Below are positions 3,059 to 63,740 of a DNA stretch of 64,000 nucleotides, piece after piece. The DNA comes from a virus (taxonomy: Duplodnaviria > Caudoviricetes), in IMG/VR virus record IMGVR_UViG_3300047160_035177, positions 209 to 64,208 of that record; one strand, 5' to 3'. The position numbers and the translations under genes were made by a program. The stretch's first letter is position 1, and every line of letters begins with the position of its first letter. The notes under the pieces were generated by a model. It was not told where the DNA came from. It saw only the letters and a list, made by a program, of their open reading frames with translations, and ran no database searches.

Positions 3059-3531
3059 TAGCGTTTCAGCAATAGGAGTAGAAGAACCGCGCCACCACCG
3101 AGAAGCAGTAAGGTTTGAGGCGTGATCGAGCTTGGAACTTGGTAGCCCGGGTAACCTGGATACATGCCAGGATAACCGGGAACATTCGGGAGAACCCCAG
3201 CGCCGAAGCTGGCAAGGATGCCGCAAGCACCGCCCGAGTAGCTTTCCCAAGAAGGACCGAGACGGAGAGCTAGAATCCGTCGCGTCTCATCGTTCCAAGT
3301 ACCGGTGACGGAAGCGGCCGTGAGTTGTCCTTGACCCTGAAGGTAAAACTGGATCGCGCGGATGCAGTAATCGCTCGACATCTCTGCCGCGGTCTTCTTG
3401 TCGCAGCGCTGGCAGCCCGAACCTGAAGGATCGAGAGTGATCTTGTAGTCGGTTGGATTCGGGCAGACGAGGGGCGCAGGGTAGTACCCAGTCGGGCAAT
3501 TCGGCGATGCCTGTCCAAGTGCAGAGCGCAT
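3058..3531 (-). CDS. Cys-rich tail-anchored protein with a possible peptidoglycan-binding-like motif
   Basis: MRSALGQ; AIQFYLQGQGQ...VTGTWNDETRRIL resembles a PG-binding helix pair; C-terminal TM. Confidence 0.7.
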   Translation of the reverse strand: MRSALGQASPNCPTGYYPAPLVCPNPTDYKITLDPSGSGCQRCDKKTAAEMSSDYCIRAIQFYLQGQGQLTAASVTGTWNDETRRILALRLGPSWESYSGGACGILASFGAGVLPNVPGYPGMYPGYPGYQVPSSITPQTLLLLGGGAVLLLLLLKR

Positions 3532-4589: not shown

Positions 4590-5545
4590 TACTTTTTCCC
4601 CAAGAAGTAGATGAGGCCTAGAACGACCGCGGCGCCGATACCAACCTTAGCGCCGGTCGAGAGATTCGACGTCAACGTTGAAGGTGGCGTGATCGTCGCG
4701 GGCCCCGGCGTTGGCGCTGCCGTTGGCGTTGGTGCCAAAGTCGTAGGCGTCGCGCCCGGCGTTGTAGTAACAGACGGCGGCGCTGCTTGGCCCGGTGGGA
4801 TGGGCGCGCACACAACGCAGTCGGGATACTGTGGGTGATGCACCGACTGCCAACCTTGCTGACACGTCTGCGGGCCATGCACGTACGGACGTGGGCAACC
4901 GCCGATCGCGCAGCCAACGCAGCCCGTGTCTTCCTGCACCGTGAATGTGTAGCCAGGCGGGCAACCACCGAACACCCAGCCCATCGGCGGCTTCGCATAG
5001 CCAGACGGGCAGGGCTGCGCGTTGTCGCGTAGGCACGTGTTGCAGCCGTCTGGCGACAAAATCACTTTCGGGTGATCGGCCGTGCACTGTTGCTGCCAAG
5101 TGAATGGCGGCATGCAGATGGGCGGTGGGTTGCCTGGTCCAAAGCCTGCGGGCGGCATGTTTCCCCCTGGAGGCGGAGCGCCCGGTGCGGGTGCTCCTGG
5201 TGCGCCTCCGCCCGGTGGTCTTTGTATCGGTGGATTTTCGCTGATGTTGCCGGTCGGGCATTTATAGCAATTGGGATTCGATGGATCGGCTTGGATAGCT
5301 ACATCGCAGTAAGACGTTCCGCCGAAATCGTGCCAATACGACTTTGAGAAGTAGGCGCCTTGGCAGGTAGCCGTTACACACGTGTAGCAAGTATCGTCTG
5401 CCCACTTTGGTTGCTGACCGGGAGGGCAAATGTAGGTATTCGGCTGCTTGCCCGAATTGGGATAGTCAGGCGGGCAGGATGCACCAAGACCCGCTAGCGC
5501 ACGCGCGACGTCTGATCGAATCGTTGACTGCGCTCGCTGCCTCAT
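4589..5545 (-). CDS. Cys/Pro/Thr-rich tail-anchored virion protein, likely paralog of 3531..4589
   Basis: Start set at ATGA overlap 5545; AGLGASC; CPxGY repeats; shared TTLAPTPT and STG(A/V)K(V/I)(G/A)IGAAV anchor. Confidence 0.8.
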   Translation of the reverse strand: MRQRAQSTIRSDVARALAGLGASCPPDYPNSGKQPNTYICPPGQQPKWADDTCYTCVTATCQGAYFSKSYWHDFGGTSYCDVAIQADPSNPNCYKCPTGNISENPPIQRPPGGGAPGAPAPGAPPPGGNMPPAGFGPGNPPPICMPPFTWQQQCTADHPKVILSPDGCNTCLRDNAQPCPSGYAKPPMGWVFGGCPPGYTFTVQEDTGCVGCAIGGCPRPYVHGPQTCQQGWQSVHHPQYPDCVVCAPIPPGQAAPPSVTTTPGATPTTLAPTPTAAPTPGPATITPPSTLTSNLSTGAKVGIGAAVVLGLIYFLGKK

Positions 5546-6024
5546 GACATCTCCAACGTGGGTTGAACCGGCCGCGTCCGCCGCAAGATGAGCCAAACGA
5601 GCGTAGCACCAGCGATGAGACCACCTGTGATGATGAGCGGTTTGTATTGCTCCGTGAACGGAACTGCAGAAGGTGGGAGAGGCGAAAGCGACGGACCTAC
5701 AGACTGACCCTGCATCTGCTCGAACTGTGTTCGCCAGTCAGCAAGTTTCGATCGGTATTCAAGCGTCTTCTCGTACGTCCCGTAAAAGAGGCGGGCAGTC
5801 CAATCTTGGTGGTCGCTGTAAAACTGCTTCCACTCCTGCCTCCAACGAGTCCACGCGTTGACCCACAGCGTGTTGGTTCCGGCTCCGGTGAACTGTTGAG
5901 TAATACGGATCGCAAGCTCATCTACAGCCTTGTCGACCGCGTTCATCTCATCAAGCATCTGCCCGGGCGTGACAACGATCGCGCCGAGCCCGGATGCGTA
6001 CTGTGCGGAAGCAACGCGCAGCAT
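5542..6024 (-). CDS. Helical, Trp-rich tail-anchored membrane protein
   Basis: MLRVASAQYASGLGA; WTRWRQEWKQF; C-terminal TM. Confidence 0.75.
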   Translation of the reverse strand: MLRVASAQYASGLGAIVVTPGQMLDEMNAVDKAVDELAIRITQQFTGAGTNTLWVNAWTRWRQEWKQFYSDHQDWTARLFYGTYEKTLEYRSKLADWRTQFEQMQGQSVGPSLSPLPPSAVPFTEQYKPLIITGGLIAGATLVWLILRRTRPVQPTLEMS

Positions 6025-6027
6025 CGA

Positions 6028-6486
6028 TCAATCCTGGTGATCGGCGCATTCGCCGGTTTCGCAAGCCTCGCAAGCTTCGGATGCTTCGTAGGCGTCTTCT
6101 TCTGCTTCCTCCGCGTCGTTCGCTTCGGGGTGGTCTTCTAGATAGCGCTTTACCTCGGCCATGAGGCGGGAACGGGAGCGCCGGGCTCGACGCTCACGAA
6201 GCGCAGTCTTACGTCCGTCTTTCGTTTTGGGCGAGACGTAGCGTTTCCAGAACCAGTAACCGCCAGCGAGAAGAGCGGCCGCCAACGCGAGCTTGGTCCA
6301 AGAAGATGACGATCCCTGCGTTGGAGGCGGAGATGGTTGAGGCTGCTGTTGCCCCAACGGGGAAAGTTGTGGGAGCTGGTTCGGAATCGCGATCAGACCT
6401 TGCGGCGTCTGCACCGCGGTGTAGCCGAGAGGCTGGCCTTGTGGGCCAAGAAGTTGGCCGTCAGGCCCGATCAAAATCTGATTCAC
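6028..6486 (-). CDS. Single-pass membrane protein with basic then acidic C-terminal tail
   Basis: PLGY and PLGQ; TM LALAAALLAGGYWFW; RERRARRSRSR then E/D-rich end. Confidence 0.7.
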   Translation of the reverse strand: MNQILIGPDGQLLGPQGQPLGYTAVQTPQGLIAIPNQLPQLSPLGQQQPQPSPPPTQGSSSSWTKLALAAALLAGGYWFWKRYVSPKTKDGRKTALRERRARRSRSRLMAEVKRYLEDHPEANDAEEAEEDAYEASEACEACETGECADHQD

Positions 6487-6964: not shown

Positions 6965-7255
6965 CTAGAGCGCGCCCGCCTTTTTTACCTTGAAAGTGCG
7001 ATCATCCGCGGCGCGTTTCTTCTCGGTTGCCCACGATCCGTTGGCAACGATCGGCGAGAAGGGAAGATTACCGACCCAGTTTTGCTCACGTTCGCGACAC
7101 TCTTTGTCGTCGCAAACGGTAGATGATCGGTACGCGTTGTGAATTCGTTTCTGCGCGTGCTTGCCGCAACGTGAGCAACGCGCGAAAGAGCTAGCGGGCA
7201 CCTCTCGTACGTTGCCGTAGCGCGTAGGCGGATTCTTTTTATGTTCAACTCTCAT
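6965..7255 (-). CDS. Small Zn-finger-like protein
   Basis: Start at ATGA overlap; CSRC...CDDKEC. Confidence 0.55.
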   Translation of the reverse strand: MRVEHKKNPPTRYGNVREVPASSFARCSRCGKHAQKRIHNAYRSSTVCDDKECREREQNWVGNLPFSPIVANGSWATEKKRAADDRTFKVKKAGAL

Positions 7256-7872
7256 CGTCGCCCCATGGGAATAGCAGCGGGTTGCCAACCGGCAACGGAC
7301 GGTCGGCGCACAGGCTCGATCGGCCATGCTTGGTAACGCGCGATCGAGTGAATCATTTCGGTCGTGTTCGGGCCGGGAACGGGATCCAGCACGATACGCC
7401 GGCCATCGCCAACTTTGACCACAGTAAAAACATGATGGAAGCCTCGTGACGCATCGGTCGTTATCGTCACGAATTCAGCGGTGTTACCGATAGCCATGAC
7501 CATCGCGGCCAAGGTGGTCGCCATCTCTTCGCAATCGACTTGACGCCCGCGCCGGCCGTCAGCGCGATCCCATGTCTCGGGTTGGAGCACCAAGTAGGGA
7601 TGTTGGGTGTATTCGGTGTGCAGCGGGTCTCGCACGTATCGAACGTTTTTTAGAACGTAGTAGTAGATCGCCGCGATCTCGGAAAGGTAGTCCTTGGCCT
7701 CGACCTGGGCGATGATCGATTCAACGAGGCGACGCAGCTCCGGAGATTGTTCTCGCGTGAGCGCGTCACGCACGAGACGACGCATGTCATCGATCGTGTA
7801 CGGAACGCCGTCGTACTCACGGGACTCGTAGCGTTTCCCCGCGGCGTACTGCGTGTGACCGAGACTCAACAC
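7252..7872 (-). CDS. Transglutaminase-like cysteine protease (putative virion maturation protease)
   Basis: VRYVRDP, DCEE (catalytic Cys), FHHVF (His), VLDP (Asp): papain-like transglutaminase core triad; own N-terminus MLSLGH. Confidence 0.8.
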   Translation of the reverse strand: MLSLGHTQYAAGKRYESREYDGVPYTIDDMRRLVRDALTREQSPELRRLVESIIAQVEAKDYLSEIAAIYYYVLKNVRYVRDPLHTEYTQHPYLVLQPETWDRADGRRGRQVDCEEMATTLAAMVMAIGNTAEFVTITTDASRGFHHVFTVVKVGDGRRIVLDPVPGPNTTEMIHSIARYQAWPIEPVRRPSVAGWQPAAIPMGRR

Positions 7873-8913: not shown

Positions 8914-10964
8914 GCTTGGATTATCTGCTGCTTAAGCTCGATGAACAACTCACGCAACCACGCTTCGCCTCGTGGGGTGAGAAGAACCGAATCAGGTTCG
9001 TTCGGCCGTTGTGCACAAACCTGCCGGACGATCTCTTGGAACGCGTCCACACCCGCGTTGACGATGTCCTGAAGGTAGAGACGCGGAACCTCCGCAACTA
9101 CTTCTTTCGCGATCTCCACTGCGGGTCGACCGCTCTCGGAAGCTTCCTCGAGGCGCTTCACCGCAACGCCAAGCGCACCGATTTCACTTTCTGTTAGCTG
9201 CGTAGGCTGCACGACTTCGGGCTTCAAGGGCTCTGCAGGTGCAGGCGCGGGCGCGGAAGGCGTTGCTACCGGTGCCGGCGCGGGTGTAGGCGCGGGTGGA
9301 TACATCGGGTAGGGCTGCGGGAATGCGGGCGCTACCTGAATCGGAAAAGCGCCGGGAGGCATCATGTAAGACATCGGCATCATCGGAGCAGCAACCGGTG
9401 CGGCCGGTGCTGTCTGCCGTTGGCCGATCGCGGTCGCTACACGCTCAAACACGCCTTTCGCGGCATCAACGACGCCCGCATCCTTCATGTCTTTAGCGAG
9501 CTGACCGATCTCGGTGCGCATCTCGCCTCCACCCTTTTCGTCGTTGCCGACGCCGGGCATGCGCATCCCGAACTGACTGGCGATACCGACAACGCTTCCG
9601 ATGGTGTCCGAAACAGATTTCAGCGCATCGGGCTTCGAGGTTCGAGCTTCGACCAAGTTGCGCTGCAACTCCTCTTTCTGTTTTTCGATGTCGTGGATGC
9701 GTTGCTCCAGCATCTGAATTCGATTTTCCTGACCCTTGATCTGCTCGCGAAAGATTCCTTCCTGCTTATCTAGCTCGGTCTTCTTCGCGAGATCGTACAT
9801 TTCCTTGAGACGCTCTGTAGCGCGCCGCTCATCGCTGTTCTGATCAGATAGACGCTTGACGTCGGACTGCCACTGACTGCGGATCGATTCGATGTCGCGT
9901 TGATGTAGCTCGTCGCGGTGCTTCTGCCGCTCACTGAAGGAATCCTCGCGTTCCTTCAGCTTCTCTTGGGACGCCTCGAGCTTCTCAACAAGCTTCTCAG
10001 CTTGTTCCTTGTGCTCACGTAGAAGCTGTTTTCGCTCTTCTTCCCACCGTTCGCGATCGTGGCGCTTGTCTTGTTCCCAACGCTCACGGGCTTGATCAAG
10101 CTCGCGCCGTGCGTCGCCTTGCATCTTGGCGACCGTTTCGGCGGATGGGTTACCGTGCGCAAGCTGGATTGCCTCGATCTGTTTCAGAAGAATGTCTGTC
10201 TTTGAATCATTGGCTTCCTTGAGAACCTTCAACATCTCCCCGAATTCACGACCGTGCGGGCCGCCATCGCGTAGATCCTGGATTACCTTCAACAACATTT
10301 CGTTGTTGAGCTTCATTACCTCCGCATCGGGCGAGATGACCCCACCCACTCCTTTAATTTTATCTTTGGAAACGCCACGAAGCATCGGAGGCGCGTTGAT
10401 GGGTACTTGCCCGAACATCTTCAACGGTCGGACTTTTCCAGATTGGGCGTGGTAGCCCATGAACTTCAGTTGATACATATATCCGCCGTTCTCCTGCTCG
10501 ATTTCGGACAGGAGATCATCGGCGTTACGTACGGCCATGATCGACCATTGGCCTGAAAAACCGGACGACGGCTTACCTTCTATGAAGGTAGGCGATACAC
10601 GCCAAGCAGTTACATACGACTGCGGATCTGATTTCAGCTTATCGATCCATTCATCGATAAGTTTCGTCAGCCCCGTTTCTTCTGCAGATAGAGCCGGTGG
10701 GATTCCAGTTGTACGATTCGTAACGTCTTCGCGAAGCGCCCCGAAAATCGGGGGCCTTTTCCGTTCTGGTTTTTCTTCTTCCTCGTTGACGACGGCATCG
10801 TTGACGCTTTCTTGCTCGCCGTTCTCGTCTAGCAGTCCTGCTTGCCGCGCCTGCGCTTGAACTTCAGCGAGATCGATATCGATTTTGCGCGGACGTCCAC
10901 GACGACGTGGAAATACCGGCTCGGGTGCAGGAAGCGCTACATCATCTTGGACTTCGTCATTCAT
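8910..10964 (-). CDS. Large coiled-coil protein with N-terminal AT-hook-like motif
   Basis: PRRRGRPRK; long E/K/R/Q heptad region; Pro-rich linker. Confidence 0.75.
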   Translation of the reverse strand: MNDEVQDDVALPAPEPVFPRRRGRPRKIDIDLAEVQAQARQAGLLDENGEQESVNDAVVNEEEEKPERKRPPIFGALREDVTNRTTGIPPALSAEETGLTKLIDEWIDKLKSDPQSYVTAWRVSPTFIEGKPSSGFSGQWSIMAVRNADDLLSEIEQENGGYMYQLKFMGYHAQSGKVRPLKMFGQVPINAPPMLRGVSKDKIKGVGGVISPDAEVMKLNNEMLLKVIQDLRDGGPHGREFGEMLKVLKEANDSKTDILLKQIEAIQLAHGNPSAETVAKMQGDARRELDQARERWEQDKRHDRERWEEERKQLLREHKEQAEKLVEKLEASQEKLKEREDSFSERQKHRDELHQRDIESIRSQWQSDVKRLSDQNSDERRATERLKEMYDLAKKTELDKQEGIFREQIKGQENRIQMLEQRIHDIEKQKEELQRNLVEARTSKPDALKSVSDTIGSVVGIASQFGMRMPGVGNDEKGGGEMRTEIGQLAKDMKDAGVVDAAKGVFERVATAIGQRQTAPAAPVAAPMMPMSYMMPPGAFPIQVAPAFPQPYPMYPPAPTPAPAPVATPSAPAPAPAEPLKPEVVQPTQLTESEIGALGVAVKRLEEASESGRPAVEIAKEVVAEVPRLYLQDIVNAGVDAFQEIVRQVCAQRPNEPDSVLLTPRGEAWLRELFIELKQQIIQA

Positions 10965-11481
10965 TTTCGACCATCGCTCTAGGTGGTTTCGGGATGCCCC
11001 ATCGCCTACGAAGCTTGACGACGTATTGACCGGTTTTCAGACCTAGTTTCTTTGCTGCCAGTTTTGTCGGCAACGACTCAATTATGTTTTGTACCTTAGG
11101 ACGGTTGTCCTCGCGTGATCCTCTTCCAACCTTGTTCTTATTGCCCCACTGCTCTTTGCCTCGACAGATTCCTTCATGCATCAAAATACGCGCAACAGAG
11201 CCCACGCCGATTTTAAAACGCTCTGCTAACTGATCTGTTGTGAAACATCCAGCGCGATATAGCGCGGCAACTTCAGCTCTAGTTTCGTCGCTGATTTTAC
11301 GCCGGTGTATATTTGGGATGTCGCGACCGCGCTGTGGAACACCGTCCGCACGGATGACTTCATAGATCCTAGGACGAGCGACGTGCAGAGTACGTGCGAT
11401 TTCAGGGATCGACTTTTCCGCTAAGTAAAGCTCGAGGATTTGAGCTTTAAGCTCATCGGAAAATGCTTTATGGCGCGACAA
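10957..11481 (-). CDS. Multi-HTH DNA-binding protein
   Basis: KSIPEIARTLHVARPRIYEVI; TTDQLAERFKIGVGSVARIL; third HTH-like segment. Confidence 0.7.
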   Translation of the reverse strand: MSRHKAFSDELKAQILELYLAEKSIPEIARTLHVARPRIYEVIRADGVPQRGRDIPNIHRRKISDETRAEVAALYRAGCFTTDQLAERFKIGVGSVARILMHEGICRGKEQWGNKNKVGRGSREDNRPKVQNIIESLPTKLAAKKLGLKTGQYVVKLRRRWGIPKPPRAMVENE

Positions 11482-24439: not shown

Positions 24440-24652
24440 ATGACGTTCGGCCAGATCAAGACGAAGAAGGAACTGCCGCGGAAGTTCGTTGTGGGCTCGC
24501 CTGTGCGTAAGCCTGCTCGTCTAAGCGTCACCGTCATGGCCAACACTGACAAGCTGGAGATGAACCGCAAGCGGATCGGGTCGAAGAAGACCGCACGAGG
24601 GATGCAACCCTTCAGCTCCGCTTCGTTGAACACTCCACCGATCTCCCGGTGA
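24440..24652 (+). CDS. Small basic hypothetical protein
   Basis: TAACCT-N6-ATG leaderless signature. Confidence 0.55.
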   Translation: MTFGQIKTKKELPRKFVVGSPVRKPARLSVTVMANTDKLEMNRKRIGSKKTARGMQPFSSASLNTPPISR

Positions 24653-25113
24653 TTCCGACGTCGACGCGGAAGATCGCGTCTTGCATCTTGCCTCGGCGCC
24701 AAGGCCGCGGATCTCTCTGGCAAGGTGGCGTCCAGCGCTTCTCGGCCGATGCGCCTTGTGTAGTAGCTTTGAAAGACGTTGATGCGGCGGTTCTTCTCGA
24801 ATGCGAAGCTGAGATCGACGTTGACGCTCCCGTGGTGCGTTACCTTCCTTTGGTGGATAGCGCTAGCGATCTTGATTACCTGCCGGAGCTGCACGACGTC
24901 GCCCGTGAGATGGCCATCACCATCCATCAAGGCGGAGACGTCGCAACGCTCTGCTACCAGGGCCGGAACCGCTCGGGGCTTCTCTCAGGGCTGATTCTTT
25001 ACGAGCTTGGGATGGACGGCCGCGATGCCGTGAAGCTCGTGCGGAAGCGACGCCGCAGGCACGCCCTTTCCACACCCGCGTTTGCGAAATACCTCAACGG
25101 ACTGGTAGGCTAA
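24649..25113 (+). CDS. Dual-specificity/tyrosine protein phosphatase
   Basis: CX5R loop LCYQGRNRSG; LVDSASD general-acid loop. Confidence 0.8.
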   Translation: MIPTSTRKIASCILPRRQGRGSLWQGGVQRFSADAPCVVALKDVDAAVLLECEAEIDVDAPVVRYLPLVDSASDLDYLPELHDVAREMAITIHQGGDVATLCYQGRNRSGLLSGLILYELGMDGRDAVKLVRKRRRRHALSTPAFAKYLNGLVG

Positions 25114-25640: not shown

Positions 25641-26255
25641 CTAGTACGGCAGAATCGGAATTTCTTTCGCCCGTTTCGGGATCGAGTCGCCTTCGATGGA
25701 ATCGATCCGCCCGAGATCGATGATCACGGGCTTTCCACGCAACAAGCCCCAGTTGTCGCTGTGCCAGTCTTCCCAGATGAATCCTAGGCGCGCCAAGGTC
25801 TTCACGCCTTCATTCACGGCCTCGAGCGCCTGACGCATCCGACGATCTGCCTCGGTGGGGCCTCGGTGCTCCGCCTCGCGCCACGAGATCTCGCGTAGAA
25901 CCGCCTCGTAGGTGTTCTCCCACGAGTCCGTCTCATCATCGTCGTCGGTGAATTCGTAAAGCTCATCGATCGGCGCGCCCCACGACGCAGGAAGCTTCTC
26001 TACACGATCGGCCTTGATGGCGTACCCTGACTTGAGGCGCCACACCACATGCACCGGGACGATCCACTGTGGTTGAGGCTTCTGGCCCGCTACCAGCCAG
26101 CACGCGAGCGCGTCGCCCGCATCATGCGTAACCTTAACGACACCATCCGGGACCGCATAGACGCACGCGTCTTCACCGCAACCTATCTTTTCTGAATTCG
26201 CGGTGAGGCCTAGAGCCTTCTCTTGGCTATCCGAAAGTTGAATCTTCCAAGTCAT
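25641..26255 (-). CDS. Atypical protein kinase-like protein
   Basis: KIGCGEDACVY Gly loop, VVKVT, DWHSDN catalytic loop, IIDLG; start at TAATG overlap. Confidence 0.75.
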   Translation of the reverse strand: MTWKIQLSDSQEKALGLTANSEKIGCGEDACVYAVPDGVVKVTHDAGDALACWLVAGQKPQPQWIVPVHVVWRLKSGYAIKADRVEKLPASWGAPIDELYEFTDDDDETDSWENTYEAVLREISWREAEHRGPTEADRRMRQALEAVNEGVKTLARLGFIWEDWHSDNWGLLRGKPVIIDLGRIDSIEGDSIPKRAKEIPILPY

Positions 26256-26947
26256 TACCGAACGGCCCAGGGTACCGGTCGCCCCGCGGGCCACGGCTGA
26301 TTTATCCCGGCGATCTTTAGATCGTTCGAGTCCAAAGCGTAAGCGATATTACCTTTGCAGGTTGTGCAAACCTGAGAGAATTTAAATTGCCCCAAGACAA
26401 CATCCATCTCACCGGGCGTGGGGAACCTACCTGTGCGGGCGCCGACATCGCGCATCGTTCCCAGGATCTGCGTCTGGATCTGTCTCCACTCAGAATCCTT
26501 GAAGCGAACGCCCATGGAGCAAGGTGGTCCGCCATCGATCCCGCGGTACTTGTGCGAGATCCACGTCTGCGCCCAACAGTTGGGACAGAACGGCCCCTCG
26601 CCATTTTCCTTGGTCAAGGCATCAACCCTTGGAGTCACCTTGGTGCCGCACGAGAGGCATGCGGCGGTGCCAGCCTGCACGGGCGTGTTGCCGGCCATCC
26701 CCTGTTGACCCATCTGCGCAAGCTGTTGCTGCGTCTCTTGCTGCCGAGAGACCATCATGTTGCCCTGCGCAGATCGCGGCGCGGGTCCCGTCTCGGCCTT
26801 GCGAACGCGGATCCCTTGGGGCATCCCACGAACGCCTTGCGTCCCGGGAGTCGGTCGCGACACGCGGATCGAAGTGTTCGGCGGAGTCACGACACGCGTT
26901 GTTGGTGCTTGCGTAGACTGCTGCCTAGTCCCAACTTTGATGCCCAT
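26255..26947 (-). CDS. Hypothetical protein with disordered N-terminus and Zn-binding CxxC pairs
   Basis: CLSC, CPNC, CTTC. Confidence 0.65.
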   Translation of the reverse strand: MGIKVGTRQQSTQAPTTRVVTPPNTSIRVSRPTPGTQGVRGMPQGIRVRKAETGPAPRSAQGNMMVSRQQETQQQLAQMGQQGMAGNTPVQAGTAACLSCGTKVTPRVDALTKENGEGPFCPNCWAQTWISHKYRGIDGGPPCSMGVRFKDSEWRQIQTQILGTMRDVGARTGRFPTPGEMDVVLGQFKFSQVCTTCKGNIAYALDSNDLKIAGINQPWPAGRPVPWAVR

Positions 26948-29243: not shown

Positions 29244-29840
29244 ATGACCATTACGGATCTCCTTCTTCTCGGCGGAGCCGGGTTTCTCGGCTGGAAGATC
29301 TATGAGGCTGTGCAGGATCAGCAAAGCCAGAAGACCGAAGCACAAGGGATGCCCGTCTACATGCCCCTCGTCGCCTCGGCCGCCGGCACCGCGGGAATCC
29401 CGACGTGGGCGCTCGCTGCCATCGTCAACACGGAAAGCTCTTGGGACAACTCCCCGCGCGAGAAGAGCTGCTCTGATGGATGCTCGGTCCCGTGTCGCGC
29501 TTCGTGCCCACCCACATGCGCGATCGGTCTAGCGCAACTCAAAGCCAAATACTTCGCGCCTGGAGGCGACGCTACCGCGCTGTGCGACCCCGCGACGAAC
29601 CTCCGGATCGCGGCCCAGCATCTCCGCGATCTTTATGCCCACTTCAAGGACTGGAACATTGCCTTCGTGGCCTACAACCAAGGCACGGGCACTGTAGATA
29701 GCGCGATCAAGGCTGGGAAAGACCCCATCGCGCTCAACTCTTCCTACGTCAGCAAGACCGTCTCGGCTGCCCAACGCTACGGCGCCGGTAGCGCCCTAGC
29801 TGGTAGTTTGCGTCTTCCTTCACTGTTCAGGGTCGCATGA
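29244..29840 (+). CDS. Membrane-anchored lytic transglycosylase (SLT family)
   Basis: N-terminal hydrophobic anchor; AIVNTESS, GLAQL, AYNQG. Confidence 0.85.
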   Translation: MTITDLLLLGGAGFLGWKIYEAVQDQQSQKTEAQGMPVYMPLVASAAGTAGIPTWALAAIVNTESSWDNSPREKSCSDGCSVPCRASCPPTCAIGLAQLKAKYFAPGGDATALCDPATNLRIAAQHLRDLYAHFKDWNIAFVAYNQGTGTVDSAIKAGKDPIALNSSYVSKTVSAAQRYGAGSALAGSLRLPSLFRVA

Positions 29841-36237: not shown

Positions 36238-36449
36238 ACGTCGTGGCGTGGATCTTGGGTCTGGCGCTTCTCGGCACGCTTATTGCTCTCGAGATTCGCG
36301 TCTCGCGCCGTCTACGCGCGAAGGAGCGCGCTATCCAGACTGAGATCGACAAGATCGCCGAAGTGATCGACGCGAGATTCCAGCGTCAGTATGGCCGCAA
36401 GAGCGCCACGCTCGCCCAGCATTTCCCGCGACTAGGAGCCGGGCAGTGA
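36234..36449 (+). CDS. Small N-anchored membrane protein
   Basis: N-terminal TM; coupled. Confidence 0.55.
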
Positions 36450-37528
36450 ATATCTGTTGCGCCCGTGGTGGCGTTGCTAGCGGCGGTGGATCCCAGGGCC
36501 CGCAAGGGCCACAGGGCCCGCCAGGATCTACAGGTCCACAGGGCTCGCAGGGAGCCCAAGGTCCGCAAGGCGCACAAGGCGCCGCTGGTGCGCAAGGTGC
36601 TCAGGGCTCGCAGGGGGCGCAGGGGGCTCAAGGCGCACAGGGCGCGGGTGTAACGCTCAACAACGCAGCGGACGGCCGCTTGACGTTGGTTACCGGTGTT
36701 CCCGTTCCTCAGACCGACCAAAGCGCAAAAACCGTCCTTTATTACACGCCGTACATCGGCGACAGCATTTCGCTGTGGAACGGCGCATCTTGGCAGACGG
36801 TTATTTTTACCGAGAAGAGCATCGACTTCACGGTTCTAGCCAACAATATTTCAGCAAACGTAAATTACGACATTTTCGGATTTCTTTCGGCGGGAACGCT
36901 TGCTCTCGATCCGCCCTTCGCTTGGGCAACAAGCGGCGCAGGAACCAGCACGCGGGTAGCAAACTTAACTCGCCAGGATGGACGACTCGTAAAAAACGGT
37001 GATGCGACGCGGTTGTACCTCGGCACTATTCGAGGTACAGGCGCGAATCAAACTTCCGATACAGCGGCCGGTCGCTACGTTTGGAACAGCTACAACCGCA
37101 CGACGCGGCCGATGTTGGAGCAGTCAGCGACCAATAGTTGGACGTACACAACGGCCACTTGGCGCCAAGCGAATGCAGACACGGCGAATCAAGTTGCGCA
37201 TGTAGTTGGCTTTGTAGATGACGACTTATATCTATCTCTAGGCGTAATCGCTTCCTGTGCCGTCGCAGACGCTGCTGTTTCCGTCGGTGTAGATTCGACG
37301 ACAACACCGAACGCCAACATGATCATATCTTACCAATCTGGTACGATCACAGCGGCAATCACAGCTTATCTTACCTATCAACCTACGATTGGTTACCATT
37401 TCTACGCGTGGTTGGAAATTTCCCCGACCGGTTCTGGCACAGTTACATGGTTTGGTTTCATCGGTACCAATCCAGTTACGGCAACGACATCCGGCCAATC
37501 TGGCATCTCGGGAACGTGGTCATGCTGA
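36446..37528 (+). CDS. Collagen-repeat fibre/spike protein
   Basis: MNICCARGG; (GxQ)n; [12 protein letters not shown]...YYTPYIG domain. Confidence 0.8.
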
Positions 37529-37547: not shown

Positions 37548-38522
37548 ATGTCTACGATCTGTTGTCAACGCGGACCACGTGGACCCGAAGGCCCCCAAGG
37601 TACCCAAGGCCCGCAGGGTTCGACGTCGTTTCTGAATGTTGTCGCCGACGGGCGCCTAACGGTTGCTTCGGGCCAGCCCGTTCCGAACAACCAAGATCTT
37701 CCTGCTCAAGGAACGCTCTTCTACACGCCCTATACTGGTGCATTCATCGCGTTGTGGGACGGCGCCCAATGGATCATCGTTCCTTTCACCGAACAGAGCA
37801 TCGTTTTCGCTGGCGGGAATGCGATCGTAGCCAACACTAACTACGACATCTTCGGCTTCCTATCCGCGGGAACCCTCGCGCTAGATCCGCCCTACGCTTG
37901 GGCTTCTAGCGGCGCAGGCACCAGCACCCGCGTCGCGCCTCTCTCACGTCAAGACGGTGTGCTGGTCAAGAACGCGGATCCAACGCGTCGCTATCTGGGA
38001 ACAATCCGCGCCAGCGCCAACAACCAAACATCTGACAGCTTGGTTCAACGGTTCGTCTGGAACAACTATAACCGGGTGACTCGACCGGTTTACATGTTCT
38101 ACAACGTGCACACATGGACATACAGCGCTCCGGGCTCGAATGTTTGGCGCGAAGCTGACGACTCAAACAACCCAAGTACTCCACGAATCATCGAGCAGGT
38201 TGTCGGTGTGGTCGACGATGCGGTTCACATCCAACTAGCCGTTCTGTCAGCTCTTAACAGCGGAGCCGACGCCGCTGTGGGTATAGGCATGGATTCGCTG
38301 ACCAGTCCCGATGCGCAATGCTCCAACACCTACAGCTCCATTCAGACCTTCGTAAATTTGTATGCATTTTTGGAACAACAACCCAGCATCGGATACCACT
38401 TCTACTCATGGTTGGAGCAATCGCCCGCGAACGCGAGCCCGACATTTCGCGGATTTGATGGCGCTAGCTCCTTCCCTGCATCTGATCAGCGCTCCGCTCT
38501 TAGCGGAATGGTGACGTCATGA
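37548..38522 (+). CDS. Fibre/spike paralog with short collagen segment
   Basis: MSTICCQRG; DGRLTVASGQPV...FYTPYTG; clear paralog of 36446..37528. Confidence 0.8.
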   Translation: MSTICCQRGPRGPEGPQGTQGPQGSTSFLNVVADGRLTVASGQPVPNNQDLPAQGTLFYTPYTGAFIALWDGAQWIIVPFTEQSIVFAGGNAIVANTNYDIFGFLSAGTLALDPPYAWASSGAGTSTRVAPLSRQDGVLVKNADPTRRYLGTIRASANNQTSDSLVQRFVWNNYNRVTRPVYMFYNVHTWTYSAPGSNVWREADDSNNPSTPRIIEQVVGVVDDAVHIQLAVLSALNSGADAAVGIGMDSLTSPDAQCSNTYSSIQTFVNLYAFLEQQPSIGYHFYSWLEQSPANASPTFRGFDGASSFPASDQRSALSGMVTS

Positions 38523-38961: not shown

Positions 38962-40425
38962 ATGATCTGCTGTAGACAAGGGCCTCGTGGGCCAGCAGGT
39001 CCCCAGGGTGTGCAGGGGCCTTCGGGCGATGCGCTGATCTTCAACTCGATCGCGCTGAACGCGCCGCAGCTCCAAGCCGCGTTCGGCTACCCGAACGGCT
39101 CGGTGGCGTTCGTCAACTCGGTCCAAGATCTGTTCACGTTCGATGCAAGCAGCACGCTCACGCCCGATCAAATCACCATCGTGCAGCCTCTCGCGGGAGG
39201 CGGACGCTGGCTCAGGCGCAACGTTCCCAGCCAGGATTGGGCGAAGCAGTCGACTTGGTTTCTCGATCCCGCTGGGGATGACGAATTCTCCGGCGCTACC
39301 GCGCTTCTACCCATCAAGACGTTCGCGGAGCTTGCCCGCCGCATTAACAAGCTCTCGATCACCCAAGCGACTACGATCACTCTCGCGGCCGGGACCTACG
39401 ACGATCTGCGCCTCGAGCTGACGATTCCACAAGGGATCTTCATCACGATTCAAGGCCACGTCACGACCACGTACACGGGTACAGTCCAATCGCATGTGGC
39501 GACGGTTCCCAGCACCAACACCCGCGGGCAGATCACGGACCCAGGCGCTAGTTATACAGACAAGCAGCGCCTCAAACTCGCTTCTGGGGCTATCGCATAC
39601 GTAACCCGCGTCATCGCCCCGACCAACGCCAACGTCTCGCGTTGGGGCCTCGACAACCCTGCCGTGTCGATCACGCCTACGATCGTTGAGCCTAACGACG
39701 GCGATTCCTACACGATGGATACGCTCGATTCCATCATCGGGCAAACGGATCTGATCATCCACGGCGGCGGGGTGTTTCTCACACGCGAAGTCACCATCAA
39801 CGCCGGTTCGCCATCGCGGGCGCATCGAGCCCATGTCGACAACGGCACTGCATCGAACGTCCGTTGGTACTCCTGCCTTTGGAACGCTCCCACCAACAAC
39901 TTCTACGACTACGAAGGAACCATCATCTGTTCGGCTTTGGCAGGTACAGCCGTAAACTTCGATGGACAGGGTGTCATAGTTCTACTTCGCAACAGCGTCA
40001 TTCAATCCAGCGTTTGGTCAGCGCTGAACTGCTTTTTGGATTTCTTTTCCTCATGTTGCATCGATGGAGCTTCTTCGGTTGCCGCCAACAACACAGGAAC
40101 GGGCAACGGGGCGAACATACGCCAACCAGGAACTGGTGGGACGCCTTCCGATCTGCAGATGGTTGACATCTCCGATGCAGCCGCGTGGGAGATATTCGGT
40201 GGGGCTACCGTAGAATTCTTCACCGCTCAGACGGTTTGGGGCACGAACAACACGCTTACGACGGCAACTTTCATCGTCCGCAGCGGAAGCAACCTGCTTT
40301 ACACCGTCAAACCCATCGTGGCCGGTGGTGCGTCAGATACTCAAATCGGAGGGAATCTGAAGTCCTACGCTCAGGTTCCTTTCTACGACACTTCGCACGG
40401 CTGCGGCTTCATCGACGACGTCTAG
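38962..40425 (+). CDS. Fibre/spike protein with probable beta-helical body
   Basis: MICCRQGPRGPAGPQG; GGGRWLR; DPAGDDEFSG...PIKTFAEL. Confidence 0.75.
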   Translation: MICCRQGPRGPAGPQGVQGPSGDALIFNSIALNAPQLQAAFGYPNGSVAFVNSVQDLFTFDASSTLTPDQITIVQPLAGGGRWLRRNVPSQDWAKQSTWFLDPAGDDEFSGATALLPIKTFAELARRINKLSITQATTITLAAGTYDDLRLELTIPQGIFITIQGHVTTTYTGTVQSHVATVPSTNTRGQITDPGASYTDKQRLKLASGAIAYVTRVIAPTNANVSRWGLDNPAVSITPTIVEPNDGDSYTMDTLDSIIGQTDLIIHGGGVFLTREVTINAGSPSRAHRAHVDNGTASNVRWYSCLWNAPTNNFYDYEGTIICSALAGTAVNFDGQGVIVLLRNSVIQSSVWSALNCFLDFFSSCCIDGASSVAANNTGTGNGANIRQPGTGGTPSDLQMVDISDAAAWEIFGGATVEFFTAQTVWGTNNTLTTATFIVRSGSNLLYTVKPIVAGGASDTQIGGNLKSYAQVPFYDTSHGCGFIDDV

Positions 40426-47503: not shown

Positions 47504-48463
47504 TTAGCCGTTGGAGAAGAGGCGCACCCAACGCGCTCCGCCGGCCTCCGTCGTGTTGCAGTAAATGAACGCGTTGACACCCGTTGCGAAGCTAATCGTG
47601 GCGCCGGTGTTGGTCATAATGCAGTTAACGGCGCTGCTATTACCGGTATCGTTGTTGGTCACAGACCAAGTGTTCGTATTGGCGCCGGTGTAGATGATAA
47701 CGATCGATCCCTCTTTCGCAGGGGCGACCATACCGGTAAGCGTGAAACCGGCGCTCGGACCGGTAATGAACCAGAACGAAGATCCACGGAGATCAACGTT
47801 GTTGTTGTTGCCGTTCGAAAGCGTGATCGATTTCGCGGGACCTAGACACAGGTTGCCGAGAATCCGGGTGAACGTATCTGCGACGTTCTGACCGAGATCG
47901 ACATCGATCGCATTGGCGCCGATAAGCACGTTACCGTTCGCGGTCGCGACGTTGCCCGTGCCAGCATCAAGAGTAAGATTCCCGCCGGTAGTTCCCGAAG
48001 ATGCGCCTGCTTTGAGGCTGATTGAGCTGCCGGCTCCAGCTACGGAAGGAGGCGCCAACGCGCCTGATCCGTTCGTCTGAATGATGTCGCCGCTAAGCGT
48101 TGTCGCGCCGCTGAAGTAGGCTATCTGCGTTGCCGTGCCCGAGATTGTTCCCGCACCTTGGGGACCTTGTGAACCCTGTGAACCCTGCGAACCCTGCGAA
48201 CCTTGAGCACCCGTCGCACCTTGTGAACCCTGCGAACCTTGAGCACCGGTGGCGCCCTGAGCACCCGTTGCGCCTTGAGCTCCAGTCGAGCCCTGGGGTC
48301 CTTGAGAACCCGTTGCGCCCTGTGGGCCCTGAGCTCCAGTCGAGCCCTGCGGACCAGCGGAACCTTGAGCGCCGGATGCGCCTTGGGGCCCTTGGGGCCC
48401 TTGGGGGCCTTGAGGACCCTGCGCTCCTCCGCTTTGGTATCCGCCTCGAGCGCAGCAAATCAT
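47504..48463 (-). CDS. Long collagen-repeat fibre protein
   Basis: MICCARGG; about 30 Gly-X-Y triplets; Gly/Asn-rich C-terminal domain. Confidence 0.85.
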   Translation of the reverse strand: MICCARGGYQSGGAQGPQGPQGPQGPQGASGAQGSAGPQGSTGAQGPQGATGSQGPQGSTGAQGATGAQGATGAQGSQGSQGATGAQGSQGSQGSQGSQGPQGAGTISGTATQIAYFSGATTLSGDIIQTNGSGALAPPSVAGAGSSISLKAGASSGTTGGNLTLDAGTGNVATANGNVLIGANAIDVDLGQNVADTFTRILGNLCLGPAKSITLSNGNNNNVDLRGSSFWFITGPSAGFTLTGMVAPAKEGSIVIIYTGANTNTWSVTNNDTGNSSAVNCIMTNTGATISFATGVNAFIYCNTTEAGGARWVRLFSNG

Positions 48464-58540: not shown

Positions 58541-58924
58541 TTAGCTTCGCTTTCGCTTTCGCTTCTGCTTGTTCACGGTCGCGGCCGCGATCGCCTTTGC
58601 GTCGGGAAGCGAGTAGCCCTGCGCTAGAGCGCTCTTCTTGATCGCCTCGTACTGACGGTTTTCTTTTTTCGTCGCGCCGGGAAGATGCTTGCCACCGGGA
58701 TTCGAACGGCGCTTGCGCTCGTGGGGCTTGCGCTCTTGCTTGATCGCTTTGTCGAATTCGCCGCCGTCTTTGGTCAGAAGATAGTAGCCACGGGGATCAC
58801 GGCAGATCTCCTCACCGCCACCAAGGCCAACGCACTGCCCGACTTTGGGCATCTTGTAGCCATCGACCTGCAGGACCGTCGCGACCTTGCGCGCCTCGGC
58901 CTTGGTGAGATTCCAGAGACTCAT
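58541..58924 (-). CDS. Basic putative DNA-binding protein
   Basis: RQYEAIKKS...AKAIAAATVNK resembles a ChaB-like/plasmid-stabilisation-annotated motif (recall); KRKRKRS end. Confidence 0.6.
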   Translation of the reverse strand: MSLWNLTKAEARKVATVLQVDGYKMPKVGQCVGLGGGEEICRDPRGYYLLTKDGGEFDKAIKQERKPHERKRRSNPGGKHLPGATKKENRQYEAIKKSALAQGYSLPDAKAIAAATVNKQKRKRKRS

Positions 58925-61256: not shown

Positions 61257-62057
61257 CTAGCAGAGGGTAACGCAGGCGAGACCGTCGATCGCGAACGAAA
61301 CCAGCTCGATGATCCCGTGGATATCGCCGAGCTTGGAATCAGGGCAGTTGCCGGCGGTCGTGCAAAGCGCGTCGCCACCCACGATCGCCGCGGCGTCGAG
61401 AGCATTGAAGCAGTTGTTGTCCGCGTCGGTGATCTCGGCGAAGAACGTAAAACCGGTCACCGAAGAGGTGTTGCCGATCGCCAGCGGGTTGACGATCCGG
61501 AACTTCGGCTGATCCGGCAGGCCGTTCGTCACGTTGACGAACAATGGGCAGGTGCAGTTGATGTCGGGGGAGCCTGGGATCGACGACTCCTGCGCGCAGG
61601 TGGCCGAAGCCATCGTCGCGAAGGCGCCCCCGCCCTCCGGCAGCTGCGAGAAGGCCTCGCAGATCTCATCAACGCCCCGAACCTGCAGGGTGATGAAGCC
61701 GGTCTCGATGATGAGGCTGGCCAGGAAGAGAACGACCGCGCCGTCAAACGCATTGAACCCGAGAGCGAGATCGCCCGCGTGATTCGTGTGCGTCGGAGTC
61801 ACGCTGGTGATGAACACCGGCACCGACAGGAAGTCCGGCACGAACACGGTACCGTCGCTTCCACCGAAGAAGATTCCCCGGAAGAAGTCGGTGGAGCAGC
61901 CACCAACCCCGGTGGGGTTCTGGAAGAGCTGCGAGCGGGCATTCACGTCCGGGAAGCAGCAAAACGAGCCGCAAAGCCCGTTAAGAATGCTGTCCTGGAT
62001 GCGGATGTACTTGGTGTGGTTGAGGTTCGTGATCTGGGATGCGCAAACTGCTGGCAT
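61257..62057 (-). CDS. Major capsid protein candidate (single jelly-roll?)
   Basis: Strong TTGGAGG RBS before MPAVC; flanked by hairpins; beta-rich; LFQNPTG...THTN motif like non-tailed virus capsid proteins I recall. Confidence 0.5.
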   Translation of the reverse strand: MPAVCASQITNLNHTKYIRIQDSILNGLCGSFCCFPDVNARSQLFQNPTGVGGCSTDFFRGIFFGGSDGTVFVPDFLSVPVFITSVTPTHTNHAGDLALGFNAFDGAVVLFLASLIIETGFITLQVRGVDEICEAFSQLPEGGGAFATMASATCAQESSIPGSPDINCTCPLFVNVTNGLPDQPKFRIVNPLAIGNTSSVTGFTFFAEITDADNNCFNALDAAAIVGGDALCTTAGNCPDSKLGDIHGIIELVSFAIDGLACVTLC

Positions 62058-62183: not shown

Positions 62184-63740
62184 TTACCCGATGCCGACCG
62201 AATCCAGCGTGCCTTGGAGCTGCTGAGCGCGCTGAATGAGCAGGCTCGCCACGAACGGGTCGTTAGCGGCAGCGCCTGCCTTCTTGAGGGCCATGTCACC
62301 AGCGACGCCGCGAGCCCCAGCGGCAGCCGGCGCCACCGCGGTTCCCGAAGCGGTCACGCCCGGAGCCGGCATGGTGCCCGGGAAGTAAGGCGACGGAAGT
62401 GGGCATGGGCTGGTGCTGGTCGGCCATGCACACCCGTACTGGCAAGTGCCAAGACCGGCTCCGTGCCCACAAGTGCCTCCAAGGCCTGCGGTGCCAGTCG
62501 GCGCCAACGCACCCGGAGCGGGTGGCGTGACGGCCGGAGGCAACGCAGAGCCCGGGAAGTACGGCGAGGGCAACGGACACGGCGAAGTGCTGGTCGGCCA
62601 AGCGCAGCCGTATTGGCAGGTACCAAGCCCTGCGCCATGGTCGCAGAGTCCGCCGAGCCCGGCCATGGGCGATCCGTAGATCGCGTTGCCGAGAACGCCA
62701 CCCTTACCGGGGCCGAGCCCGACCATCGGCAGCACGATGCCGAGAACGTCTTCGACAAAGTGCAGCGCCGCACCGAGAGCGATCAGCTCCCGATTCGAGC
62801 GCCAAGCCGAAGGCGTCCAGTTCTGTCCGCCAGCCCACCACAGAGCGCCCGTGGTGATCGCCGAGACGACCGGAGGAGCCCACTTCGAGGCGCTGATCGA
62901 CGGAGCGGCCTTGGCAAGCTGGGTAGTACCCCAGCTCGACAGAGCGCGTGCGCCGATGAGACCAATGGAGGCGATTGCTGCCTTCTTGGTCAGATCGACG
63001 AAACGACCCGTCGGGTTGGCGCTCCGCATCTCATACGACCGTCGGTGCCGTCGCCGGCGCTCTGAAGGCATGTACGAGGAGTACGGACGGCCAAGAGCCG
63101 TAAACTCGCGGCTCCGCCGATGACGCCGCCTGCGGCGCTCGCCTACAGCCTCACGGGACCGTCGCCGCGACCGGCGCCGCCGACGCTCGCCCATGAAGAA
63201 CGGGAGAAACTCGCGCGACCGACGCCGCGCCCGTCGACGCGACCGTCGCCGCCTCCGGCGCTCACCGAGCCCGAAGAAACTCGCCAGAGTTTCCCGGCTT
63301 CGCCGCCTTCGGCGCCGCTCGCCCGTTCGCCGAGACCGACGCCTTCGGCGCCGCTCACCAGCGCGCATCGTCTCGCGCGACCGGCGCCGACGTCGACGCT
63401 CGGAAGCAACAACTTCACGCGACCGCCGACGCCGCTTGCGCGACCGCCTCCGGCGACGCTCCGAAAGATCACCTGCGACGGCTTCTCGCGACCGGCGCCG
63501 ACGACGCCGACGGCGCTCTGCTAGCGCCTGAAATGCTGCCATGGCCATGCGATTCTCCTTTGGTCGATAACGACGACGTTCACCGAGGGTTATCGGTCCA
63601 TCTGGCGGATAAACCAGCGTGGCCGTTGTGACGCCTCCTATCACCGCGTCTGCGGGTAGCGCGTCACGATAACGCCGTCTGCGTTTACGCACGTTGATCA
63701 CGTTACGTGGATGGGGGAAAGCGTCAAGAGAAAATTTCAA
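62184..63740 (-). CDS. Protamine-like Arg-repeat core protein fused to hydrophobic and Cys-repeat regions
   Basis: About 10 xERRRRR(R)SR blocks; hydrophobic helices; duplicated GLGTCQYGCAWPTSTSPCPLPSPYFPG. Start uncertain: TTG 63740, GTG 63692, or ATG 63548 with AAGGAG RBS. Confidence 0.8.
   Translation of the reverse strand: MKFSLDAFPHPRNVINVRKRRRRYRDALPADAVIGGVTTATLVYPPDGPITLGERRRYRPKENRMAMAAFQALAERRRRRRRRSREAVAGDLSERRRRRSRKRRRRSREVVASERRRRRRSRETMRAGERRRRRRSRRTGERRRRRRSRETLASFFGLGERRRRRRSRRRARRRSREFLPFFMGERRRRRSRRRSREAVGERRRRRHRRSREFTALGRPYSSYMPSERRRRHRRSYEMRSANPTGRFVDLTKKAAIASIGLIGARALSSWGTTQLAKAAPSISASKWAPPVVSAITTGALWWAGGQNWTPSAWRSNRELIALGAALHFVEDVLGIVLPMVGLGPGKGGVLGNAIYGSPMAGLGGLCDHGAGLGTCQYGCAWPTSTSPCPLPSPYFPGSALPPAVTPPAPGALAPTGTAGLGGTCGHGAGLGTCQYGCAWPTSTSPCPLPSPYFPGTMPAPGVTASGTAVAPAAAGARGVAGDMALKKAGAAANDPFVASLLIQRAQQLQGTLDSVGIG
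62381..62665 (-). repeat. Duplicated Cys/Pro-rich coding repeat of about 37 aa
   Basis: Two nearly identical peptides encoded with many synonymous DNA differences. Confidence 0.85.
63028..63521 (-). repeat. Poly-Arg coding repeat array
   Basis: Repeated (G/S/A)ERRRRRRSRE units. Confidence 0.9.

Follow-up and report, generated by a model that had tools for sequence, protein, structure and literature searches.

The 64,000-nt stretch of DNA analyzed here, hereafter the window, covers nearly all of the IMG/VR virus record IMGVR_UViG_3300047160_035177, a sequence of 64,208 bp. Since the record bears direct terminal repeats (DTR), a complete virus genome, either circular or circularly permuted, is probable. 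Our subject is a minus-strand gene near the end of the window, the Arg-block gene, whose product joins a chain of poly-arginine blocks to a non-basic C-terminal half. An original prediction, made from the letters and a list of open reading frames, had read it as a precursor of protamine-like peptides that could tether DNA to a viral membrane. The parts of the gene are as follows.

62184..63740, minus strand: longest open frame of the Arg-block gene, 518 codons stop to stop; product probably 502 aa from GTG 63692
63700..63727, minus strand: promoter-like TTGACG-N16-TAACGT, 7 nt before GTG 63692 (read by eye, under the scanner threshold)
63582..63692, minus strand: N-terminal leader of about 37 aa, with a basic start, a conserved Gly-Gly-Val-Thr-Thr and a Leu-Gly end before the first Glu-Arg block
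63546..63560, minus strand: internal AAGGAG-N6-ATG (Lys-Glu-x-x-Met), conserved in DNA between the window and the metagenomic contig L002; Lys-Glu-x-x-Met also in the homologue P0011
63030..63581, minus strand: basic repeat region, ten Glu-Arg(4-8)...Ser-Arg-Glu blocks with mostly hydrophobic spacers of 2 to 10 residues
62676..63014, minus strand: Gly/Ala-rich helical domain, the proposed anchor, with three main helices and invariant Arg, Arg, and Glu (alignment A4)
62541..62660, minus strand: Cys/Trp/Pro repeat copy 1, 4 Cys; core of three Cys retained in nearly all aligned relatives
62367..62486, minus strand: Cys/Trp/Pro repeat copy 2, 4 Cys; core of three Cys retained in nearly all aligned relatives
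62196..62306, minus strand: C-terminal helical hairpin with an invariant Asp-Pro, conserved; AlphaFold2 (AF2) predicted local distance difference test score (pLDDT) about 60

Ten block starts of the form small residue-Glu-Arg-Arg-Arg were counted in the frame, and seven of the blocks terminate in Arg-Ser-Arg-Glu followed by a hydrophobic residue, much as first described (about ten blocks of Gly/Ser/Ala-Glu, four to eight Arg, and Ser-Arg). The residue before the block-start Glu is Gly in 6 of the 10 (Leu-Gly twice, Met-Gly, Val-Gly, Ala-Gly, and Thr-Gly), which bears out the spacers reported to end in Leu-Gly, Met-Gly, or Val-Gly; the rest have Ser or Ala. The basic half (residues 1 to 242; 62967-63692) contains 93 Arg and 5 Lys against 24 Glu plus Asp, for a net charge of about +74, whereas the C-terminal parts are neutral to slightly acidic (net +3, -5 to -7, and 0). 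Five different Arg codons are used in the blocks. Because Tandem Repeats Finder returned merely short 9- to 12-nt arrays in the gene and no long DNA repeat, the blocks are not a recent DNA repeat.

That the Arg frame might not be the translated one had been named from the outset as a way in which the prediction could fail, and codon comparison indicates that this frame is translated. Contig L002 carries a full-length homologue in one 501-codon frame, and in a protein-guided codon alignment 40 of the 46 aligned Arg-Arg positions use different, synonymous Arg codons. Changes at the three codon positions numbered 14/10/32 in the leader and 88/75/145 in the C-terminal half, highest at the third position in both. 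An Arg-rich frame on the opposite strand (63193-63531, plus strand) was considered as the gene and rejected on this codon evidence, since the Arg codons differ synonymously and third-position changes dominate.

The same comparison bears on the start codon. An obvious Shine-Dalgarno sequence precedes ATG 63548, but the approximately 50 residues upstream of it also appear to be coding: 22 of 33 identical residues use different codons in L002. At the homologous position L002 has TTGACT-N18-TAGAGT, 8 nt ahead of the homologue's ATG. Given this coding conservation and the promoter-like elements before both starts, GTG 63692 is most likely the start, giving a product of 502 aa. The leader that it adds is retained in P0006, P0010, and P0011. 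The internal ATG is possibly a second start, which would yield a 454-aa form lacking the leader. The source's own gene call (P0002; 62184-63026, minus strand) spans just the last 281 residues, and the Arg-rich half is therefore absent from the public protein set of the record.

The C-terminal half was modeled with AF2 from 12 sequences of the 281-aa part (mean pLDDT 52). The main helices occupy residues 6 to 41, 51 to 67, and 80 to 102 of this part, at pLDDT 66 to 82; the Cys/Pro region was unmodeled (pLDDT about 30), and the C-terminal helices reached about 60. A structure search (VIA) with the model gave generic helical matches only (Z of at most 7.9, under the noise level for helical bundles). 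The two Cys/Trp/Pro copies, initially described as conserved in protein but not in DNA, indeed share 35 of 40 residues against 83 of 120 bases (69%), with 23 synonymous and 5 nonsynonymous codon differences. A protamine-like composition joined to a conserved helical anchor domain thus held up in alignment A4 and the AF2 model.

Proteins of this build fall into three types. Type A comprises the window protein, L002/P0006, P0003-P0005, and P0007-P0014, about a dozen relatives, all metagenomic, recovered from 1.84 billion representatives by word matching and by a full HMMER profile search (E 1e-12 to 1e-229) and called as single proteins of 430 to 723 aa. Where complete, they keep the order of leader, basic repeats, helical domain with invariant Arg/Arg/Glu, two Cys motifs, and C-terminal Asp-Pro helices. 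Their basic regions carry net charges of +44 to +130 (some N-termini are truncated), with a variable number of blocks and one Lys-rich version. Block number and charge thus vary while the anchor is conserved, as predicted for a bulk electrostatic role. The Arg-block protein had no match in Pfam (E 0.01), PHROGs, NCBIfam, or PDB sequence profiles, nor by tblastn against 50,697 phage records, and the ESM Atlas returned only unnamed clusters at 0.87. Family-pattern scans of IMG/VR and GTDB genomes found no further members, and the one metagenome scan made gave one locus, L002. In IMG/VR, a degenerate DNA pattern for Glu-Arg5-x-Arg-Glu matched only singly and by chance, or hit Arg-rich but off-frame stretches of GC-rich phages.

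The wider group was reached through another gene of the window, which lies about 7.7 kb upstream of the Arg-block gene on the same strand, across the circular join.

7252..7872, minus strand: transglutaminase-fold Cys-His-Asp enzyme, candidate processing enzyme (PF01841, E 3.8e-5)

An enzyme-profile search of IMG/VR gave 18 loci (30 to 36% identity) on records of 20 to 180 kb, all of which were examined for a basic protein. Eight enzyme-sharing records are DTR or at least 90% complete, and each of them has one such polybasic protein, with a 290- to 530-residue Arg/Lys region followed by a hydrophobic helical domain. The homolog survey that the prediction had proposed therefore found the same build in every complete relative, with charge tending up with genome length. 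By BLASTP, the genes shared between the window and the 18 loci are only the enzyme (18/18) and ParB (3 loci), and these records are accordingly distant relatives. Type B comprises three records of about 80 kb, each with one protein of approximately 470 to 560 aa made up of 290 to 360 basic residues as Asn-Pro-Arg(4-7) units, a hydrophobic helical domain, and acidic Gly-Glu-Tyr/Glu-Glu-Leu-Gly repeats; the helical domain gave a weak but specific match to the type A profile (hhalign Prob 73%, E 3e-5, 114 columns). The type B loci L146, L147, and L148 (G004, G018, and G006) also have a second frame of 247 to 386 aa that weakly matches the hydrophobic domain of their own polybasic protein (E 6e-5 to 6e-8), perhaps a paralogue. 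Type C comprises nine further records with open frames of 640 to 900 aa, laid out as an N-terminal Gly-Val-Thr-Thr/Ala...Asn-Gly segment similar to the leader motif of type A, 320 to 520 Arg/Lys-rich residues, a hydrophobic domain, and Gly-Glu-Tyr-Phe repeats.

We set the net charge of each basic region against the length of its record. The values were +74 at 64.2 kb, +129 at 79.9 kb, +124 at 82.4 kb, +136 at 82.6 kb, +141 at 111.6 kb, +165 at 138.1 kb, +185 at 138.4 kb, +188 at 140.1 kb, and +161 at 179.4 kb. The rise of charge with genome length is suggestive (Spearman rho 0.88, p = 0.002, n = 9, for lineages that are not independent; rho 0.83, p = 0.04, n = 6, once close relatives were collapsed). 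Each chain supplies approximately 0.9 to 1.65 positive charges per kb, from which, by arithmetic, neutralizing a large share of the DNA would take several hundred to about 1,500 copies.

The setting of the gene is that of a virus with phage-type replication. The window encodes replisome genes (DUF3987 primase-helicase, SNF2 helicase, PD-(D/E)XK nuclease, an AAA_24 protein, and UDG-exonuclease/PolA), an integrase, ParB, a sigma factor, an SLT lysozyme, glycosyltransferases, and four collagen-like (Gly-x-y) proteins. These last (36446-37528, 37548-38522, and 38962-40425, plus strand; 47504-48463, minus strand) all start with Met-(x)-Ile-Cys-Cys-x-(Arg/Gln)-Gly. A long minus-strand block of uncharacterized proteins spans the circular join, and the Arg-block gene is the head of its 55.5- to 64-kb part. 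Many proteins of this late block combine a short N-terminal leader ending in Leu-Gly with a C-terminal membrane anchor. The gene directly downstream is a conserved neighbor.

61257..62057, minus strand: next gene downstream, candidate major particle protein; 266 aa, Cys-rich

This 266-aa gene has a G+C content at third codon positions (GC3) of 0.83, versus 0.55 for the overlapping plus-strand frame, and in L002 it likewise directly follows the Arg-block homologue. Its protein has just two relatives among 5.8 billion protein clusters, one of which, P0016, is recorded on a 1996-bp contig of the same size as that of P0004, so that their pairing is judged from equal size. In L130, an 82-kb relative, the basic gene is likewise followed by the genes of highest GC3 in the locus. 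Also in L130, an endonuclease VII gene (10414-11019, plus strand; PF02945, E 7e-23) directly follows the transglutaminase-fold gene; its product may resolve branched DNA before genome enclosure.

Other late proteins have features of their own. Two Cys-rich proteins (3531-4589 and 4589-5596, minus strand) have near-identical C-terminal ends, in which a Pro/Thr-rich stalk leads through a Ser-Thr-Gly-x-Lys motif to a hydrophobic helix with a short tail of Lys; the shared end resembles a sorting or anchoring signal, and neither protein has a classical signal peptide. Two more (58541-58924 and 6028-6486, minus strand) have strongly basic stretches, in one a Lys/Arg-rich C-terminus and in the other an Arg-Ser-Arg run just past a membrane helix, and may be additional DNA-facing parts. 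Elsewhere in the window, a match to a dual-specificity phosphatase (DSPc; 24649-25113, plus strand; E 5e-4, 20.3 bits) and an APH/kinase-like fold (25641-26294, minus strand; E 0.007, 16.6 bits) fell under their cut-offs of 33.5 and 23.2 bits. A kinase/phosphatase switch acting on Arg-Ser-Arg-Glu was rejected, with only these subthreshold matches to draw on and a Ser that is not invariant (P0010 has Leu, Phe, or Ala).

Genes for a packaging motor were sought in the window genome and five relatives. Six-frame searches of all six found no Terminase_6N, FtsK, or A32 family. Portal families were absent from six-frame searches of the window genome and four relatives, and HK97 capsid families, sought six-frame in the five relatives only, were absent from all five. 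Among the scanned window open frames of at least 150 aa there was likewise no terminase, portal, or HK97 capsid family. Control genomes gave matches for the motor and capsid families that exist in bacteria, although very divergent versions could escape detection. The capsid model of the nucleocytoplasmic large DNA viruses matched nothing in the window or four relatives, and because it also matched nothing in any control genome, that negative is uninformative. In the window, canonical Walker A motifs occur in just two proteins, the SNF2 helicase and the recombination-type AAA_24 protein; one more match, at a membrane-protein C-terminus, is due to chance. The motor-free part of the prediction agrees with these results, in that no packaging ATPase was detectable in six genomes; this is absence of detection and no proof of absence.

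The best explanation of the gene, and one that we consider an even call, is that its product serves an uncultured, probably tailless bacterial virus as an anchored core protein that condenses the genome. The N-terminal chain of about ten poly-arginine blocks would bind and neutralize viral DNA in the cytoplasm, in the manner of protamines and adenovirus core proteins. The blocks would also bridge the DNA, and the hydrophobic spacers may pack onto one another or onto the anchor layer. The C-terminal half (three-helix domain, two Cys-rich knobs, and terminal hairpin) would fix the protein to the inner layer of the particle, either a lipid membrane or the shell itself, so that DNA would be tethered and compacted while the particle forms around the condensed genome. 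The helical domain may span a membrane aided by its invariant Arg/Glu pair, lie on the membrane surface, or bind a protein shell. The leader ending in Leu-Gly may be cut off by the transglutaminase-fold cysteine enzyme; cutting at every block would be possible in this clade but unnecessary. Under the positive-inside rule a domain of +74 cannot cross a membrane, and the basic half would for that reason stay on the DNA side; the asymmetry between a positive N-terminal and a neutral C-terminal half fits an N-terminus on the cytoplasmic DNA side. An anchor layer derived from the cell membrane would thus turn its cytoplasmic face toward the DNA, opposite to the PRD1 route, where a vesicle lumen receives the pumped DNA (PMC6356626). 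That the protein binds DNA and is part of the virion is our inference, and so are the nature of its anchor, any membrane in the particle, and assembly concurrent with condensation; such concurrent assembly has been discussed for adenovirus (PMC12090768) and seen for the portoglobovirus nucleoprotein core (PMC8459092).

Several observations weigh against an anchored core protein. When two partial records (length scaled by completeness estimate) and two type A contigs of uncertain completeness were added, the charge-length rho was 0.55 (n = 13, p = 0.05). The trend, moreover, lies mostly between the three protein types and is non-monotonic within type C, for which reason we take it as suggestive and not as proven. 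hhalign found no significant relation of type C to types A and B, and type C is therefore counted as the same architecture only. Packaging does not depend on adenovirus protein VII (PMC12090768), the best-known analogue, so that a basic core protein alone does not replace a motor. AF2 gave no usable fold for the 266-aa neighbor (pLDDT 27, 3 sequences), and hence no capsid fold was assigned. As for the anchor, the hydrophobic helical segment first proposed is recovered as AF2 helices, but its hydrophobicity is only marginal: Kyte-Doolittle values reach at most 1.71, with a single window above 1.6 and the others at 1.0 or below. The best 19-residue windows score 4.8 to 5.8 in a rough Hessa-type sum, compared with -1.6 and 1.2 for the genuine C-terminal anchors of neighboring genes; a helix of the SNF2 helicase, a soluble protein, scores 4.3. 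The membrane protein of the original prediction thus keeps its three predicted helices, yet its segments are far weaker than the membrane anchors encoded next to it.

Known systems offer partial parallels. Adenovirus core propeptides are removed by the virion cysteine protease at small-residue sites, and pre-mu is an Arg-rich peptide with a hydrophobic C-terminal piece. The likeness to pVII and pX/mu is that of Arg-rich proteins that coat and condense double-stranded DNA (dsDNA) in a non-tailed capsid (core and packaging reviewed in PMC12090768). The window protein differs from them in having no Pfam match (E 0.01), a transglutaminase-fold candidate that is not adenain, one chain of about 500 residues with about ten blocks and a conserved anchor, and bacterial gene signals. 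Protamines and baculovirus P6.9 have clusters of 4 to 8 Arg, short neutral hinges, and Ser beside the Arg runs, and neutralize the charge of DNA (for P6.9, PMC5899202, PMC6669607). They are free peptides of 30 to 100 residues, whereas in the window protein Glu flanks the blocks, hydrophobic residues space them, and an anchor of about 280 residues is fused to them. At about 500 aa with a 280-aa non-basic domain, the protein falls outside the range of protamines, which have about 30 to 100 residues and consist mostly of Arg clusters. Protein J of the phiX174 type places its basic N-terminal part on the genome and its hydrophobic C-terminal end on the inner capsid, in a virus that has no terminase-type motor. 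It is the closest phage analogue in logic, although J has 20 to 40 residues, serves a 5-kb single-stranded DNA genome, and shows no homology. T4 IPI-IPIII are basic proteins packed with DNA, and their N-terminal leader is removed by the prohead protease. T4 differs in being a tailed phage that has a terminase, and its serine protease cleaves after Glu; its internal proteins have neither Arg-block repeats nor an anchor domain. The terminase, portal, and HK97-fold capsid that mark a virus with T4-type internal proteins did not appear in the searches made here. In the portoglobovirus SPV1, circular dsDNA is condensed by VP1 into a nucleoprotein core within an inner lipid layer and an icosahedral shell (PMC8459092). 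SPV1 differs in being archaeal, with a genome of 20 kb and a VP1 that is described as building a nucleoprotein filament with the DNA, in contrast to a chain of Arg blocks anchored in a membrane (PMC8459092); the likeness is one of description.

The internal-membrane icosahedral phage SSIP-1 (Salisaeta icosahedral phage 1) has the sole cultured-virus relative of the enzyme, gp34 (30% identity, E 1e-18, in a two-genome BLASTP), which is annotated as a structural protein (PMC6356626). SSIP-1 is without an Arg-block homologue and shares only the enzyme and the sigma factor with the window. Its ORF 51 (L003, JN880423, 38488-38631) is a hypothetical protein of 47 residues whose N-terminal half is rich in Arg and whose C-terminal half is hydrophobic, a small-scale counterpart of the Arg-block layout.

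Several observations bear on whether the Arg-block protein is cut, and by this enzyme. Its Asp-Cys, His, and Asp are invariant in 20 homologues. Two close homologues, P0030 and P0027, lie on contigs of 99,642 and 119,388 bp, the exact sizes of the contigs of P0009 and P0014, distant type A members, and co-occurrence there rests on size identity. Most of the close enzyme homologues (alignment A7, P0018-P0034) bear N-terminal extensions of varied length that end in Leu-Gly or Met-Gly before the conserved domain, and the enzyme may trim itself. In protease notation, with P1 as the residue before the Glu, the 51 block starts of ten type A members have at P1 Gly (25), Ala (12), Ser (10), or Asn (2), so that Gly, Ala, or Ser account for 47 of 51 and, together with Asn, for 49. 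At P2, Leu occurs 24 times, Ala 8, Val 6, and Phe 4, and these four residues or Met fill 44 of 51 sites. This boundary motif resembles the Leu-Gly leaders of the neighboring particle-type proteins, of which about ten in the late block open in this way, mostly before Gln, and that of the enzyme.

Such regularity would fit a polyprotein in which the enzyme cuts after each hydrophobic-small pair before Glu to release about ten protamine-like peptides of 15 to 25 residues, a membrane protein, and Cys peptides, as originally proposed. The constrained P1 and P2, the Leu-Gly leaders of the late block and of the enzyme's close homologues, the invariant triad, and the matching contig sizes for P0009 and P0014 all speak for it. 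Types B and C, however, share both the build and the enzyme. Type B lacks the Leu-Gly|Glu motif and has Asn-Pro before its Arg runs, with no Leu-Gly leader seen in any of its neighboring genes, and the leaders of type C are without a Leu-Gly|Glu junction. Even in type A, P1' is always Glu at the blocks but Gln, Ala, or His at the leaders, and in P0009 blocks that open with Glu are nearly absent. The C-terminal half, moreover, is rich in Gly, Leu, and Ala, from which Leu-Gly is to be expected there. Small-Glu and Asn-Pro both suit the N-cap and N1 positions of helices, which gives the conservation of the block boundary a structural explanation. The claim of polyprotein processing is thus borne out as a conserved boundary in the window's own clade and loses ground in the wider group, where Asn-Pro takes its place, while the release of small Cys peptides found no support. 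The enzyme named in the prediction remains a candidate by virtue of its triad and its co-occurrence with the basic protein, but the motif that it was to cut is missing from type B and was not seen in the leaders of type C, both of which share the enzyme. General Pfam scans of about 50 window open frames revealed no protease family, although no search aimed at adenain was made. Removal of the N-terminal leader is the most plausible single cut; multi-site processing would be a minority reading, and the polyprotein as a whole is, in our judgment, fairly unlikely.

Other roles can be envisaged for the protein. In a membrane-active entry or lysis protein, polycationic arms would bind anionic lipids or the host envelope in the manner of arginine-rich penetrating or antimicrobial peptides, and so deliver the genome or disrupt membranes instead of condensing DNA. 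The Arg blocks do alternate with hydrophobic spacers ahead of an amphipathic helical domain, membrane proteins are among the top structural neighbors of that domain (at noise level, Z of at most 7.9), and the gene sits among particle-type genes. Charges of +74 to +188 per chain that rise with genome length would be unexpected for a role directed at lipids. The block number varies freely, and the gene's partner is the structural gene of strongest codon bias and not the SLT lysis-type gene (29244-29840); we consider this role unlikely. A non-virion organizer, which would serve replication, segregation, or host shut-off by tethering the host nucleoid or replicating viral DNA at the cell membrane, would fit an element that encodes ParB and an integrase, as well as a basic domain that must remain cytoplasmic. 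It is hard to square with a location in the late block among leader-bearing, membrane-anchored particle-type proteins, with the high-GC3 266-aa gene next to it and the same gene position in L130, and seems to us quite improbable. The chain might lastly be a scaffold or chaperone, akin to scaffolding proteins and the T4 prohead core, whose basic region neutralizes acidic inner surfaces or nucleic acid during assembly and is then degraded. A virus-encoded Cys-His-Asp enzyme, the leader motifs, and the acidic Gly-Glu-Tyr repeats in the same chain of types B and C are compatible with this. The charge-length trend, however, fits a partner that scales with the genome, and the C-terminal net charge of the window protein is only 0 to -7; we regard a scaffold as very improbable.

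To our knowledge, in all well-studied large dsDNA bacterial viruses an ATPase pumps naked DNA into a preformed shell, and motor-independent concurrent assembly, although known from eukaryotic viruses and a few of the archaeal ones, is not known to us from large bacterial viruses. Protein-mediated genome condensation is a hallmark of eukaryotic viruses (adenovirus, baculovirus, and giant viruses) and of few archaeal ones. Our full-text literature searches brought up no bacterial virus reported to encode a protamine-like protein; the recent NO16 study noted only host histone-like proteins in particles. Basic viral core proteins are themselves already known, and what is described here is a new protein family in an uncharacterized viral group. 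A bolder proposal, which we regard as doubtful, is that this group forms an unrecognized lineage of large bacterial dsDNA viruses (64 to 180 kb) that would lack terminase, portal, HK97 capsid, and FtsK/A32 ATPase, condense the genome without a motor on an anchor-tethered, protamine-like protein with charge matched to genome length, and use a transglutaminase-fold enzyme for maturation. A conserved, anchored poly-arginine protein with a charge that tends to follow genome size, in a group with no recognizable motor, would provide a testable handle on an alternative packaging route in bacteria and would mark out a dark viral lineage; both this protein and the enzyme could be expressed and assayed without the native host.

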